Shown here: in pieces, positions 32,574 through 38,701 of the stretch
How positions within the stretch are numbered: position 1 is the stretch's first letter
How the letters are laid out: every line of letters begins with the position of its first letter
Assembly (NCBI GenBank): GCA_016219145.1
Contig: JACRCG010000234.1
Span: 1 to 49,885 of the forward strand
Length of the DNA: 49,885 nt
Direction: 5' to 3'
Source: Deltaproteobacteria bacterium
GTDB lineage: Bacteria; Desulfobacterota; Desulfuromonadia; Geobacterales; Pseudopelobacteraceae
Notes under the pieces: model-generated
What the model was told of the DNA's origin: nothing
Seen by the model: only the letters and a program-made list of their open reading frames with translations
The model's database searches: none
Translations under genes and position numbers: made by a program

Positions 32574-34553
32574 CTAGGAGACCGGCAGCATTACAGTAAA
32601 CTTTGCCCCCTTTCCTGCCCGGCTTTCAACCTTGATCTCACCGCCATGCCGCTTGACGATGTTGTAGGTCAGGGCCAGGCCGAGGCCGACCCCTTCACCG
32701 ACATCCTTGGTTGTGAAGAACGGGTCCCAGATGCGGTCAATTATATCCTGAGCAATACCGCAGCCGGTGTCACGCACCTGAACATACACAACCCGGTCCT
32801 TGGCAGAGTGAGTTGTTGATATTTCAACCCTGCCGCCATCCTTGGTCGCATGACACGCATTGATCAGCAGGTTCATGAATACCTGGCGCAGCCCGGATGA
32901 GTCCCCCAGAATAGAGGGAATATTCTCTTTCAGCCTGGCAACGACTTCCATCTCGTCGTAGTTGGGCTGATGCTTGATCAGTTCCAGAATTTCCCTAATC
33001 AGGCCGTTCAGGTTAACGGTGCCGATCAAGCCATCAGACTTTCTTCCAAATTTGAGCAGACTGCCGATAATCCCTTTGCAGTGGTAGGCCTCCCGGACAA
33101 TGACTTCCAGATATCTGGGGAAGTCCTCCAGCCTGGTATCGCTGCCCAGTGAGGGCTCTTCGCGAAAACGACGCAGAAGAGCCTCGGCATACCCGGCTAC
33201 CGAGGTGAGCGGGTTGTTGATTTCGTGGGCAATACCGGTTGAAAGCACCCCGATGCTCGACATTTTTTCTGTCTGGATCAACTGCATTTCTTGCAGCCTT
33301 TTATGTGTCACATCGCGCAGAAAAACCAGCGCCCTGGTTTTCTCCCCCATCTCATCCTTGATCGGGCTGGCTGTAATGTCAATGTAGCGGGCATCATGAC
33401 CTTCGCCCTCCAATACCATGGAAGTCTCGACCTGCTCACCGTGCAGAGCCAGTTCAACCGGACAGTTTTGTGGTGAAAAAGCGGTGTCCGGATGAAAGAC
33501 CTCCCGGCATCCTCCACTGGAAAGAACGTCCTCCGGGAAAAATTGCGGGCAGATGTGATTATGATGCTGAATCGCACCGTTATGGTCAAAGACAATAACG
33601 CCATCGTTAACTGCGTCAAAAATTGCCTGCAACTCGTTTTTCTTATTCCGCAGCCGGACCTCGTCCTGCTTGCGCTGGGTTACATCCTGTGTCGTGCCAT
33701 ACAGCTTCACAACTTGCCGGGCGATATTTACAGAAGGTTCGACAATCGTGAAAACCCATTTGGAGGTGCCATCCCTCAGCAACAGGCGATGCTCAATCTC
33801 GTAGTTATTGCCCTGTTCGGAGCCCTGCTGCATGAGGGCCAGAACGGATTCGCGATCATCGGGGTGGATCAGACTTGCCAAGGCTTCCGGTGTAGTTTCT
33901 TCGCGGCTGAGATTCATAATGCGAAGCAGTTCGTCAGAAACACGCAATTCGCCGCTCATCGGGTCCGAGCGCCATGATCCGACATGGGACATCGACTGGG
34001 CCTTGGCCAGATTATATTCGCTCTCCCGCAAGGATTCTTCCCAGCGTTTGCGTTCGGTGATATCGACCATGGCGGCATGGCACTCATCGCCAGACCCCAC
34101 CGCCATCGCTTCTATTCGCACGTACAGCGGCTGGTTGCCTTTGATTGCGAGTTTCACCCGGCAGGTCATTTTGTCGTGACCCTGAAAGACCATCCGCAGA
34201 AAATCAGCGAATACAAAGCGATCTACTTCGGAGATAAAGTGCTCGAAACGCAGGTTAGTCAGGGTCGCGCGTTCTGATTTAAGCAGGCAGGCTCCGGTCA
34301 GGTTAACGCTCCTGATAACACCCTTAAGGTCGAACGTGAAATATCCAACGGGAGCAAAGTCATACAAAAGTGCGTACTTATCGCGTGACGCCTCCAGCTC
34401 TTGCCTGCTGTTTCGCAACTCTTCGATCTGAAGCTCCAGCTCGCTCTGGCGGAGACGATATTGTTGAAGAAGTTTTGTCACATTCATTACGGTGCTGGAC
34501 GAGGAAGCATCAGCCTCGTCGCCAACCGGCGGTTTGGCAGTTCGGCGCGTCAT
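32574..34553 (-). CDS. Multi-PAS sensor histidine kinase (no cognate response regulator adjacent)
   Basis: 659 aa with a coiled coil, about 3 PAS modules, HisKA H-box [10 protein letters not shown] and HATPase_c (N, G1, G2 boxes). Its start overlaps the stop of the gldA-like gene (ATGA). It is a paralogue of the kinase at 42092-43309. Confidence 0.88.
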   Translation of the reverse strand: MTRRTAKPPVGDEADASSSSTVMNVTKLLQQYRLRQSELELQIEELRNSRQELEASRDKYALLYDFAPVGYFTFDLKGVIRSVNLTGACLLKSERATLTNLRFEHFISEVDRFVFADFLRMVFQGHDKMTCRVKLAIKGNQPLYVRIEAMAVGSGDECHAAMVDITERKRWEESLRESEYNLAKAQSMSHVGSWRSDPMSGELRVSDELLRIMNLSREETTPEALASLIHPDDRESVLALMQQGSEQGNNYEIEHRLLLRDGTSKWVFTIVEPSVNIARQVVKLYGTTQDVTQRKQDEVRLRNKKNELQAIFDAVNDGVIVFDHNGAIQHHNHICPQFFPEDVLSSGGCREVFHPDTAFSPQNCPVELALHGEQVETSMVLEGEGHDARYIDITASPIKDEMGEKTRALVFLRDVTHKRLQEMQLIQTEKMSSIGVLSTGIAHEINNPLTSVAGYAEALLRRFREEPSLGSDTRLEDFPRYLEVIVREAYHCKGIIGSLLKFGRKSDGLIGTVNLNGLIREILELIKHQPNYDEMEVVARLKENIPSILGDSSGLRQVFMNLLINACHATKDGGRVEISTTHSAKDRVVYVQVRDTGCGIAQDIIDRIWDPFFTTKDVGEGVGLGLALTYNIVKRHGGEIKVESRAGKGAKFTVMLPVS

Positions 34554-35662
34554 AACCGGAGCGCCTTTTTGTAACGCACTCCGAGGGCATCAGCGGTCCA
34601 GATTGCGGATTCTACCATAACGGCAGAAACAGGAAACCAGGTCGAGTGAACAGTTTCTCCATCAGCAACGGTTGCTTCCGCCACTTGCCTGATGTCCTCG
34701 ACAGAGGGGCCGATTATGTCCAGATCTTCCAGGCATAAAGGCAGTCCGACCCTGAAGCAGAAATCCTGAACCTCAGTGATGGCACTGGAAGAGCGGCCTT
34801 CCAAAACAAGCTGAACAATGACTCCAAAGGCAACTTTTTCACCATGAAGTTTATGTTTCGCAGCTGGCAACGTAGTGAAGCCGTTATGAATCGAGTGTGC
34901 CCCGGCATGTCCTCCATTTTCAGAACTTAGCCCGCTCAAAAGAGTGTTTGCCTCAACAATATATTCAACTGCTGGCGTCACGGAATTCCTTTCGACGGCC
35001 AATTTCGCCTGAAGACCAAATTCCAGCAATGTTTCGTAGCAGATCCTCGCTAATGCTTTAGACGCCAGAGTGGAACTAGCCCCACCCGTAAGCGGATTAG
35101 GTTTTCCGCTTCTGGAACAGGTATCGGACTCCCAGAAGGTGGCCAAGGCATCTCCCATCCCGGCTATAAGAAATTTTACGGGTGATTGGGTAACTAACGC
35201 CGTATCAACCAGAACGCAATCCGGGTTTTTTCGCAAAAAAAGATAGCGTTCGAAAGCTCCATTCTCGGTATAAATAACCGACAAGGCCGAACAGGGTGCA
35301 TCGGTCGATACTACAGTAGGCACCACTATCACCGGCAGCTTCATTTCGTCTGATACAGCCTTGCCGGCATCGATTGAAGCACCACCGCCCAGGGCGATGA
35401 TAATATCCACTCCATGTGCTGCCGCGATCCCGGCCAGCCGGGCGATTTCATTTTGTGAGGATATTCCCTGGAAACATTCCTGATGGCAGGTGATCCCATG
35501 TTCGGCACAACTTGCAGAAATATCCTGTCCGCACAGCGTCAGAGCGGTCTTTCCGCCGATAACAAGAGCGCTGGTCCCGATGCGGGACGTGTGCAGACCA
35601 ATTTCCCTGATGGCCCCGGCTCCTTGAACATAGCGGCCTGGCGCGAGCAGCATGCGGCTCAT
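34550..35662 (-). CDS. Glycerol dehydrogenase (GldA)-like group III (Fe/Zn) polyol/alcohol dehydrogenase
   Basis: 370 aa from MSRMLLAPGRYVQGAGAI.., preceded by AGGAAAGGA. Motifs: GGGASIDAGKAV, STDAPCSALSVIY, GMGDALATFWES, H..H metal ligands. Confidence 0.8.
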   Translation of the reverse strand: MSRMLLAPGRYVQGAGAIREIGLHTSRIGTSALVIGGKTALTLCGQDISASCAEHGITCHQECFQGISSQNEIARLAGIAAAHGVDIIIALGGGASIDAGKAVSDEMKLPVIVVPTVVSTDAPCSALSVIYTENGAFERYLFLRKNPDCVLVDTALVTQSPVKFLIAGMGDALATFWESDTCSRSGKPNPLTGGASSTLASKALARICYETLLEFGLQAKLAVERNSVTPAVEYIVEANTLLSGLSSENGGHAGAHSIHNGFTTLPAAKHKLHGEKVAFGVIVQLVLEGRSSSAITEVQDFCFRVGLPLCLEDLDIIGPSVEDIRQVAEATVADGETVHSTWFPVSAVMVESAIWTADALGVRYKKALRL

Positions 35663-35684
35663 GATTTTCCTTTCCTGGCAATAC

Positions 35685-35849
35685 TCAGTAGCCACCACAG
35701 ACACCGTCAACCGGTACCTGTCTGATTTCGATTTCTTTTTCCTCAGCTTTTTCAGGCTCGACTGCTGTATCTGTTGCAGGTGGGATTTTAACTGGCAGAG
35801 GGGTGGCAGGCTTGTCGTTTTCCTTTATGGTGTTTTTGGACTCATCCAT
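35685..35849 (-). CDS. Divergent mycofactocin-like precursor peptide ending ..VDGVCGGY
   Basis: 54 aa, MDESKNTIKENDKPATPLPVKIPPATDTAVEPEKAEEKEIEIRQVPVDGVCGGY*. A strong RBS (AAGGAG) lies 8 nt upstream. The C-terminal DG(I/V)CGxY* aligns with the bona fide MftA at 27812-27919. The stop is 22 nt before the gldA-like ATG. Confidence 0.7.
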   Translation of the reverse strand: MDESKNTIKENDKPATPLPVKIPPATDTAVEPEKAEEKEIEIRQVPVDGVCGGY

Positions 35850-35877
35850 AAATTCAGCTCCTTTAGTGTATTGATTG

Positions 35878-38470: not shown

Positions 38471-38536
38471 TGATGACCTCGTTCGTGTTGTATTTAACTC
38501 TTTCAATATTGAGCCTCTTGCAAAAGTCATAAAAGG

Positions 38537-38645
38537 CCCCTCCCCCCTGGCGGGGGAGGGTTAGGGTGGGGGGGAGGTTGCCATGATATCAGCAAGTGGC
38601 ACCTTCACCCACCCCCCCAACCCCCTCCCGTCAAGGGCGGGGGAG
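38537..38645. repeat. G/C-rich nested palindromic element (CCCTCCCCC..GGGGGAGGG type)
   Basis: CCCTCCCCCctggcGGGGGAGGG (38538-38560) and CCCCCTCCCgtcaaGGGCGGGGG (38621-38643). The outer arms GGGTTAGGGTGGGGGGGAGGT and ACCTTCACCCACCCCCCCAACCC are also complementary. Confidence 0.8.
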
Positions 38646-38687
38646 CTAATTTTGAGACTTTTGCAAGAGCCTCTATTGAATTACTTT

Positions 38688-38701
38688 GCAAGCTTTGCGC
38701 C
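38688..38701 (-). promoter_or_regulatory. Candidate sigma-54 promoter for the MoxR-VWA-peptide-gldA-like operon
   Basis: The minus strand reads cGGCGCaaagcTTGCa (GG-N10-GC spacing correct, perfect -12 TTGCA, 4/6 at -24). It lies immediately downstream of the terminator at 38711-38762. Confidence 0.35.

Follow-up and report, generated by a model that had tools for sequence, protein, structure and literature searches.

A selected MftA-like C-terminal tail in a dehydrogenase operon of Desulfuromonadales, possibly a substrate module for radical-SAM enzymes

The DNA analysed here, referred to as the window, is the whole stretch of 49,885 nucleotides (positions 1 to 49,885 of contig JACRCG010000234.1) from the assembly GCA_016219145.1 of a Deltaproteobacteria bacterium belonging to the Geobacterales. 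Its minus strand carries an operon encoding dehydrogenases, a MoxR-type ATPase and a protein with a von Willebrand factor A (VWA) domain, and this operon contains an open reading frame (ORF) of 54 residues whose last residues before the stop codon are VDGVCGGY. The analysis revealed that this ORF is a genuine, selected small coding gene, and that its C-terminal tail, also found on larger proteins of related bacteria, is under strong purifying selection and is selected as a unit. The tail could be a mycofactocin-derived module of the RiPP type (a peptide made by the ribosome and modified after translation), that is, a substrate for radical S-adenosylmethionine (radical-SAM) enzymes serving mycofactocin-associated dehydrogenases. 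This explanation is put forward tentatively, with somewhat less than an even chance of being right.

The peptide gene occupies positions 35685..35849 of the minus strand, stop included, and its 54-residue product (MDESKNTIKENDKPATPLPVKIPPATDTAVEPEKAEEKEIEIRQVPVDGVCGGY, then stop) runs from MDESK to VPVDGVCGGY. A Shine-Dalgarno sequence, AAGGAG, lies at 35858..35863 on the same strand, 8 nt before the ATG. The ORF starts 28 nt past the end of the gene for a 78-residue Cys/His-rich protein, and a GldA-like gene follows 22 nt past its stop. The conserved C-terminal module EIEIRQVPVDGVCGGY comprises residues 39-54 (35688..35735, minus strand), and residues 1-38 are degenerate and rich in Pro, Glu and Thr. 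The window copy has the full consensus tail, with the stop immediately after the Tyr. When the window was translated in six frames, DG[IVMLA]CGxY-stop was the ending of just two of them, namely this ORF and the true mycofactocin precursor MftA (27812-27922). An earlier, sequence-only reading of this DNA had described the gene order, the ribosome-binding site, the peptide ending, the 22-nt spacing to the GldA-like gene and an ATGA overlap at the next gene, and all these statements about the sequence hold. A word-indexed protein search with the 54-residue peptide matched the peptide itself only; since the same search overlooked tailed proteins sharing 11 identical residues with it, this lone self-match was not counted as absence of homologues.

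Relatives were collected by a genome scan with the VWA protein, which gave six Desulfuromonadales/Geobacter loci (VWA 81-88% identical), and by a metagenome scan with an alignment of the tail, which gave 25 loci. Gene order was tabulated for about 45 related loci, designated L001, L002 and so on. Only the last 16-18 residues of the peptide are conserved, with the family consensus EPEIAIKQVP[MVAG]DG[VI]CGGY-stop. Across 25 distinct DNA versions, the residues I-15, V-10, G-6, C-4, G-3, G-2 and Y-1 are invariant, each of these positions is encoded by 2-4 different codons, and the stop comes directly after the Tyr in 24 of the 25. Synonymous differences among these versions are near saturation (pS ~0.69), and the ratio of nonsynonymous to synonymous differences (pN/pS) is 0.16 in the last 16 codons vs 0.62 in the eight linker codons that precede them. 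Tail-bearing sequence clusters number more than 100, and none is annotated.

Regarding the claims made from the sequence alone, the view that the ORF is beyond chance gained support, as the tail is kept in 25 distinct DNA versions at saturated synonymous change and intact stand-alone homologues with their own AGGAG exist elsewhere. The proposed check for purifying selection on the peptide ORF showed a strongly constrained tail and a weakly constrained remainder. It had also been noted that Gly replaces the lactam-forming Val at position -2, and this extends from the window to 25/25 DNA versions and 67 distinct protein tails. On the other hand, the 54-residue precursor is not the real unit, which is the C-terminal module of 16-18 residues, usually part of a folded protein. 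A Gly-Ala-Tyr ending was seen in one locus, L036, which is the closest relative of the window by its Cys/His protein (90% identity) and has a full thiol peroxidase in the slot of the peptide (8275-8835) with the variant tail ...QQLKMDNVCGAY-stop, Ala being at -2. In Geoalkalibacter halelectricus (L041, CP092109, 10001-11439) a fusion of the Cys/His protein with the tail ends in ...KDGFRGGY, with Arg replacing the otherwise invariant Cys; its close metagenomic relatives L044 and L045 have ...KDGFCGGY.

The carrier of the tail at this one operon slot can be the Cys/His protein, a thiol peroxidase (NF001808, 217 bits), an M24 peptidase, or none, as in the short ORFs. Among the 120 clusters listed for the Cys/His family, 48 are forms of ~103 residues that end in the tail. 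In L001 and L002 the slot of the 54-residue ORF is occupied by an M24 metallopeptidase of 247-252 residues, and the last 25 residues of these proteins end in ...QQVPMDGVCGGY-stop or ...ETGSCGGY-stop. M24 homologues were found in two lengths, 241-252 residues with the tail and 221-223 residues without it, the latter in unrelated neighbourhoods. The match between the window peptide and the tailed M24 proteins is limited to residues 24-54. The peptide as a mere M24 leftover, which L001 and L002 suggested, was rejected as a full account because three other carriers were found and the N-terminus of the peptide was traced to thiol peroxidase (Tpx) and not to M24.

The common gene order of the relatives is (MoaA-MOSC)-rSAM1-Fe-ADH-MoxR-VWA-Cys/His-tail carrier-(rSAM2)-(GldA)-PAS kinase-(NudC), where Fe-ADH is an iron-dependent alcohol dehydrogenase and rSAM1 and rSAM2 are radical-SAM genes. 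The recurrence of the tail with the Cys/His and MoxR-VWA genes, which a gene-neighbourhood comparison had been expected to address, is clear from the gene-order table, as the tail is present wherever the VWA gene is immediately followed by the Cys/His gene. The same table gave no specific link to the adjacent GldA-like dehydrogenase, for which a dedicated peptide had been suggested. The tail occurs without GldA in L011, L027, L028, L035, L039 and L042, and GldA occurs without the tail in L006; GldA as the specific partner of the peptide is not supported.

These distributions also bear on the main rival explanation, according to which the tail stays unmodified and serves for docking or targeting, tethering accessory proteins to a common operon partner. 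The partner could be the VWA protein, whose metal ion-dependent adhesion site (MIDAS) would bind the conserved Asp/Glu while MoxR acts on the client, or the decameric Fe-ADH or GldA-like enzyme, with the tail in the mycofactocin site. Docking would account for the same tail being present on several catalytically intact enzymes at one slot, joined through a variable acidic linker, and for its constant presence where the Cys/His gene directly follows MoxR-VWA. The VWA protein carries a DxSxS MIDAS motif (CDVSFSVS, as read from its sequence), and in an AlphaFold2 (AF2) model of the fused form the tail has a predicted local distance difference test score (pLDDT) of ~50, consistent with a flexible and accessible peptide. 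From general knowledge, MoxR-VWA pairs such as CbbQ/CbbO reach their clients through VWA-MIDAS contacts and C-terminal tails. Docking is an alternative to be taken seriously, although we consider it unlikely.

The stand-alone form is a part of the family that docking explains less readily. An unindexed profile search of 1.84 billion representatives gave the window peptide and 13 further cargo-less clusters, that is, 14 at no more than 50% identity; ten of the 13 have 51-62 residues and three are over-called at the N-terminus. Five sequenced stand-alone genes (window, L011, L042, L046 and L048) each have an AGGAG site and an intact frame, and they are flanked by the Cys/His gene on one side and by either GldA or the kinase on the other. 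The AGGAG lies 6-9 nt before the start in L011, L042, L046 and L048. In the stand-alone genes, pN/pS is 0.23 in the last 16 codons vs about 0.56-0.57 in the N-terminal part, with synonymous sites near saturation. Cargo-less peptides thus persist with a selected tail, which fits a self-sufficient module with a leader whose N-terminal part does not matter. That 14 diverged clusters keep the frame, the ribosome-binding site and the selected tail is hard to explain by cargo delivery alone; in the docking explanation the cargo-less peptide would be a competitor, a regulator or a slowly decaying relic.

Concerning the origin of this form, the window and L011 peptides align without gaps and share 13/38 N-terminal identities, a number matched by 11/100000 shuffles. 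The L011 N-terminus compared with Tpx N-termini (ME.R...F.GNP.T) gave a score reached by 0-9/2000 shuffles, and the stand-alone N-termini (ME.R...K.GNP.TP) resemble that of the tailed peroxidase (MEERSGITSFKGNPVT). Direct similarity between the window peptide and Tpx is not significant, and no Tpx domain remains. It seems that the first 38 residues of the window peptide look like a weakly constrained relic of a thiol-peroxidase N-terminus, and we infer from these alignments that a peroxidase-tail gene lost an internal segment in frame, which gave rise to the stand-alone peptide, and that the tail is what the peptide has been retained for since then.

Such an origin raises the question of whether the 54-residue ORF of this genome is only a functionless remnant of the deleted peroxidase-tail gene that is transiently intact. 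Decay is frequent in this operon family: L036 has a called gene of 56 residues (8853-9023) that is a C-terminal GldA relic, in L017 a peroxidase-tail frame (5800-6110) is truncated at the N-terminus and its stop is gone (CGGYW...), and in L011 two in-frame stop codons interrupt the Cys/His gene (450-740). These are signs of ongoing decay. Moreover, rSAM1 is not in the window operon either, and the N-terminal 38 residues are weakly constrained (pN/pS ~0.56). Nevertheless, the same deletion form, gapless or near-gapless, is present in at least 5 sequenced loci and 14 clusters, all with a start, AGGAG and an intact frame, and the tail has a pN/pS of 0.23 with synonymous sites near saturation. A remnant is very unlikely because a start codon, a ribosome-binding site and the consensus tail are all present in the window copy.

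Two short ORFs were also seen outside this gene order. In L033 (5932-7208) a GldA-like gene is preceded, at a distance of 36 nt, by a 27-residue ORF (MKSVNHTLARRELAVKQVPMDGICGGY-stop), and the neighbourhood lacks MoxR, VWA and Cys/His genes; the ORFs downstream resemble NadB (L-aspartate oxidase) and NadA (quinolinate synthase) by reading only, and a NudC-like NUDIX protein by tblastn (59% identity). In L031 (337-2135), outside the operon, a short ORF ending in ...VPQIAIRQVPMDGVCGGY-stop is followed by an ORF that, by its translation, resembles a rubredoxin-fused FAD/NAD(P) oxidoreductase.

The relation of the tail to mycofactocin was then considered. The window contains a variant-type mycofactocin cluster on the minus strand with mftA (27812-27922; NF040489, 37 bits), mftB (27562-27807; TIGR03967, 60.5 bits vs a cut-off of 33) and mftC (about 26532-27572; TIGR03962, 350 bits). 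The cluster (14481-27998) has the order mftA-mftB-mftC-OYE2-etfA-fixC-etfB-mftF, followed by an aldehyde:ferredoxin oxidoreductase gene and a ThiF-family gene; no homologue of mftD or mftE was found among the large ORFs scanned in the window. Immediately upstream of mftA, at 27983-27998, there is a perfect TGGCAC-N5-TTGCA. The sequence-only reading had stated that there is no local mftB/mftC, which is right for the operon itself, but mftA, mftB and mftC are only 7.9 kb from the peptide gene on the same strand, with toxin-antitoxin, Mrr, major facilitator superfamily (MFS) and NUDIX genes in between. The block at 30283-32483, between the operon and the MFS-NUDIX-mft genes, holds an Mrr-type restriction endonuclease and small ORFs that, by translation, resemble toxin-antitoxin pairs (PIN/VapC-like, Phd/YefM-like, RelE/YoeB-like). 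In L017, L039, L040, L044 and L045 the operon abuts mftA-B-C, which follow within a few kb, and in these relatives the tail gene is still parted from the mft genes by the kinase and NUDIX genes. The kinase is almost directly followed by NUDIX and mftA in L017, L039 and L040, so the Mrr/toxin-antitoxin block looks like an insertion.

When a profile of 37 tails was compared with Geobacter-type MftA by hhalign, a probability of 88.8% and an E-value of 2.5e-6 were obtained over 18 columns, with EPEIAIKQVP-DGVCGGY aligned to LEEI-VE-LA-DGICGVY. The relation of the C-terminus to MftA, claimed earlier from the last residues, is therefore borne out, although both profiles are short and the result is moderate evidence for this reason. 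The 18 aligned columns mean that the resemblance covers the stretch that could pair with a RiPP recognition element (RRE) chaperone as well as the core. Together with the strict Tyr-stop, this resemblance points to enzyme recognition of the terminus, which goes against docking. MftC catalyses the oxidative decarboxylation of the C-terminal Tyr and then forms a C-C bond from the beta-carbon of the penultimate Val. Gly at -2 makes the mycofactocin Val-Tyr lactam impossible. Neither among the curated families (NCBIfam 2026, Pfam 2025) nor in the literature was a description found of the tail, the Cys/His protein or their combination, and the literature search found no paper containing both CGGY and radical SAM; in this respect the earlier remark that no described CGGY-type mycofactocin paralogue was known still stands.

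Candidate maturases other than MftC were looked for in the relatives. The rSAM1 product is a SPASM enzyme without a curated family (88-102 bits with the MftC model vs a cut-off of 265). In nearly all relatives its gene, of ~1.1 kb, comes after the response regulator and ahead of Fe-ADH, and some have MoaA and MOSC genes there too. The window has 321 bases at this site (40397-40718) without similarity to the relatives, so it lost rSAM1 or never had it. Two tail-bearing operons are without rSAM1, the window and L012, the latter being the only other one among the loci that cover the spacer. rSAM1 as the dedicated maturase of the tail was rejected as a strict link, since it is in the tail-less operons L003-L006 and absent from the tail-bearing window and L012. 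The second gene, rSAM2 (also SPASM), starts 6-90 nt after the tail gene in L041, L044, L045 and L012, and 6 nt past its stop in the first three. The Cys-containing tail with rSAM2 is known only from the metagenome contigs L044 and L045, and the cultured host has the RGGY variant. Among the window ORFs scanned, mftB/mftC are the only radical-SAM/RRE machinery. The absence of a local maturase is correct for the window operon as the sequence-only reading had it, but it is peculiar to the window, since the operons of the relatives include a radical-SAM/SPASM gene or two. Concerning docking, these genes weigh on both sides: the presence of a radical-SAM gene is uncorrelated with that of the tail, as expected if the tail is unmodified, whereas rSAM2 directly after the tail gene in four loci is not.

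If the tail is a radical-SAM substrate, the following course is proposed. The module would be descended from, or shaped like, the C-terminal 18 residues of MftA, with a short alternating-hydrophobic stretch as expected for binding by an RRE chaperone (MftB-like), followed by the DGxCGxY core and a free C-terminal Tyr. The 54-residue ORF would be the cargo-less member of a family of carriers for the module ~EPEIAIKQVPxDG[VI]CGGY-COOH, and a radical-SAM/SPASM enzyme would act on the terminal CGGY. This enzyme would be rSAM2 or rSAM1 of the operon in the relatives; the window has neither, so the model requires MftB/MftC in trans, and in this genome these would process the tail. With Gly at -2, the chemistry to be expected would be that the Tyr is oxidatively decarboxylated and possibly also linked to the Cys. 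Once modified, the tail would serve the operon of the Fe-ADH, the GldA-like enzyme, MoxR-VWA and the Cys/His protein, and it could work either as a free peptide or while attached to one of its carriers (Cys/His protein, peroxidase, M24 peptidase). MftB binding, any modification and the role of the product are parts of this proposal that we infer.

Several findings weigh against this explanation. The curated MftA models (TIGR03969, NF040489 and PF23709) gave no match to the 54-residue peptide or to three representative tails even at E<=10, and in the same runs the true MftA of the window scored 37.3 and 31 bits vs cut-offs of 30 and 25. The second step of MftC needs a carbon that is missing when residue -2 is Gly. 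Among the window ORFs scanned there is no radical-SAM gene besides mftC, the operon being without rSAM1 and rSAM2; rSAM1 is present in the tail-less operons L003-L006, and rSAM2 in only 4 of the ~20 loci whose sequence continues beyond the tail. In one cultured species CGGY is replaced by RGGY. Furthermore, the peroxidase and M24 carriers retain their catalytic residues, as read from their sequences, and enzymatically intact carriers are unusual for a RiPP leader and would fit a targeting tag equally well. The docking tail explains the intact enzymatic carriers better than the radical-SAM substrate does, and it explains the cargo-less peptides and the tail ORF of L033, beside GldA with no MoxR, VWA or Cys/His genes nearby, worse.

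In a more specific version of the radical-SAM explanation, the mycofactocin machinery would have a second product line, of Gly type, that starts from the CGGY tail. A SPASM enzyme would turn the tail into a previously unseen redox group, bound to a peptide or a protein and used as a dedicated adaptor of nicotinoprotein Fe-ADHs in anaerobic Desulfuromonadales. The product would be a decarboxylated and/or Cys-Tyr-linked moiety, tethered to the carrier enzymes or on the free peptide, which could function as an electron or cofactor adaptor. This version is speculative and improbable as it stands. If it were true, it would be the first RiPP-type substrate module grafted onto active enzymes.

The Cys/His-rich protein encoded just upstream of the peptide (35878..36114, minus strand, 78 residues) is the commonest tail carrier in relatives, in the 103-residue fused form, and is probably a small metal-binding protein. 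It has no Pfam or NCBIfam family match, and its 167 homologues are all unnamed and without a Pfam domain. Nine residues are invariant in this family: C3, H8, H11, C13, C35, C38, C49, H64 and H76. The AF2 model of the 103-residue fused form is poor (pLDDT 60.5, predicted template modelling score, pTM, 0.38), and a Foldseek search with it against PDB returned zinc-finger noise only (E>1), with no fold match.

In another explanation, the tail and the Cys/His protein form a metal-handling or redox device that loads or repairs the iron site of Fe-ADH, with MoxR-VWA as the insertion machine and no radical-SAM step. A metal site or a thiol relay would be completed by the Cys of the tail, which perhaps joins the Tyr in an autocatalytic Cys-Tyr pair. 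The Cys/His protein, with its nine invariant Cys/His, always has the tail fused to it or next to it, and the thiol peroxidase carrier has both redox cysteines. It is also general knowledge that MoxR-VWA systems (CoxD/E, NorQ/D) are metal-cofactor insertion chaperones and that Fe-ADHs are prone to metal-catalysed oxidation. However, the tail of G. halelectricus has Arg for Cys, the low-confidence AF2 model leaves the tail undocked on the Cys/His domain, and the MftA-like stretch upstream of the Cys, the M24 carrier and L033 are left unexplained. Such a device is doubtful, and we would be rather surprised by it.

As regards the rest of the operon, the minus-strand order from 44475 down to 32574 is ErcA-like Fe-ADH, PAS kinase, sigma-54 regulator, Fe-ADH, MoxR, VWA, Cys/His, 54-residue ORF, GldA-like and multi-PAS kinase. 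The first three genes form a regulatory module (40722..44475) whose gene order is the same in relatives: the ErcA-like Fe-ADH (43309-44475), a PAS histidine kinase (42092-43309) and a sigma-54-dependent response regulator (40722-42104). The second Fe-ADH (38805..40010), of the N,N-dimethyl-4-nitrosoaniline (NDMA)-methanol-dehydrogenase/ErcA type, is MadA-like (TIGR04266, 298 bits, cut-off 625), has 95-99% identity in close relatives and is presumed to be a mycofactocin-associated dehydrogenase. It is followed by the MadB-like MoxR-type AAA+ ATPase (37568..38530; NF047784, 301 bits, cut-off 475) and the MadC-like CoxE-type VWA protein (36126..37565; NF047783, 154.8 bits, cut-off 600; PF05762, 97 bits). 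MadB and MadC are the top NCBIfam matches by a wide margin and yet below the cut-offs, so the ATPase and the VWA protein are relatives and not equivalogs. The GldA-like enzyme of the glycerol dehydrogenase family (34550..35662; NCBIfam PRK09423, 451.5 bits vs a cut-off of 336) is encoded after the tail gene in many relatives, not all. The multi-PAS histidine kinase (32574..34553), whose start overlaps the GldA stop (ATGA), is the last conserved operon gene in all relatives. All these genes are on the minus strand.

A candidate sigma-54-type promoter for the unit from MoxR to the multi-PAS kinase is located upstream of the MoxR gene on the minus strand (GGCGCAAAGCTTGC at 38688-38701; CGGCGCAAAGCTTGCA at 38687-38702, 2 mismatches). 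A lone match of this kind is not above chance; as a sequence the site reported earlier is real, and the motif GGCG[CT][AG]A[AT][GA][ACT]TTGCA recurs at the same place in the FeADH-MoxR spacer of 7/11 relatives. A hairpin-T-run, terminator-like site lies between Fe-ADH and this motif. From the sigma-54-like site to the MoxR start (38538-38650) there are inverted repeats with long G-runs and C-runs (GGGAGGGGGTTGGGGGGGTGGG ... CCCCCCCACCCTAACCCTCCCCC), which do not align to L001 and have the look of a repetitive palindromic element that was inserted here. Upstream of Fe-ADH, ~385 bases (40010-40397) are ~82% identical to L001 with no evident ORF; this conserved stretch may be a leader or regulatory region, and a sigma-54-like site (TGGCATTCAACTTGCT) is found within it at 40215-40230. 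At the start of the window, an integrase-core (rve) ORF (1249-2085), probably of an insertion sequence, stands beside Schlafen/AlbA_2-domain and RecG-C-terminal-like ORFs.

Among known systems, MadA/MadB/MadC of actinobacteria (the Mno/Mdo clusters of Rhodococcus and Mycobacterium) likewise place a Fe-ADH of the NDMA-methanol-dehydrogenase type ahead of an ATPase of the MoxR type and a VWA protein of the CoxE type. The three window proteins are well below the curated cut-offs (301/475, 155/600 and 298/625), and the Desulfuromonadales operon adds the Cys/His protein, the tail, GldA, the PAS kinase and radical-SAM genes, none of which is described for the actinobacterial clusters in the literature found. 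MadA has been named as the mycofactocin-dependent alcohol dehydrogenase of R. jostii in a review (PMC13210347), Fe-ADH paralogues have been tied to mycofactocin in Geobacter (Haft 2011, PMC3023750), and in Geobacter pickeringii a comparable methanol-oxidation cluster has been noted upstream of the mycofactocin genes (PMC4358379). The view that the mycofactocin-associated dehydrogenase set (Fe-ADH, MadB-like and MadC-like proteins) has its Desulfuromonadales counterpart in this operon is supported.

A MoxR ATPase and a VWA-MIDAS adaptor encoded beside the enzyme that they mature are also found in CbbQ/CbbO (Rubisco), CoxD/CoxE and NorQ/NorD. By analogy with them, a flexible tail with conserved acidic residues could serve as a handle, although we know of no conserved, transferable tail motif in these systems. 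If the tail described here is a docking tail, it would be the handle by which the MoxR-VWA machine or Fe-ADH recruits helpers.

The NHLP (nitrile-hydratase-like) and Nif11 leader RiPPs carry a short C-terminal substrate region on a larger N-terminal part derived from an enzyme family. The tail resembles them in being a short conserved C-terminal region on a much larger carrier, and it differs in having three unrelated carriers with catalytic residues kept, a conserved part that is constant and not hypervariable, and a maturase that is only putative. In the PqqA/PqqD/PqqE system, a peptide-derived redox cofactor is made with a SPASM radical-SAM enzyme and an RRE chaperone. The tail shares with PqqA a small peptide whose conserved core contains a Tyr, a genome that encodes an RRE chaperone and a SPASM enzyme, and dehydrogenases that are the end users. 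The core chemistry of pyrroloquinoline quinone (PQQ) is instead a Glu-Tyr crosslink, there is no sequence similarity and, to our knowledge, the precursor is never a protein tail in PQQ systems. As far as we know, mycofactocin is the only RiPP-derived redox cofactor besides PQQ.

What is new here is that Geobacter/Desulfuromonas relatives have, as part of their mycofactocin-associated dehydrogenase operon, a second MftA-like module that is strictly conserved. If it is modified, mycofactocin-type chemistry would extend to a core unable to form the lactam and to protein-tethered products. The servicing of mycofactocin-dependent Fe-ADHs becomes approachable through a short synthetic peptide, and G. 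halelectricus, a cultured host in which the RGGY tail is directly followed by rSAM2, makes the question testable together with the L044/L045 form. Compared with MftA itself (TIGR03969; NF040489; PF23709), the tail differs in having Gly and not Val at -2, which makes the 3-amino-5-[(p-hydroxyphenyl)methyl]-4,4-dimethyl-2-pyrrolidinone (AHDP) lactam core impossible. It is also usually the end of a folded protein of 103-250 residues, whereas MftA is a peptide of 30 residues, and its gene lies in a dehydrogenase/MoxR-VWA operon and not beside mftB-mftC. Both share the C-terminal ...DG[IVM]CGxY with a free Tyr carboxylate and a preceding E-E-I-x-[IV] stretch, and both occur in genomes or neighbourhoods with mftB, mftC and mycofactocin-associated Fe-ADHs, with sigma-54-type sites upstream.

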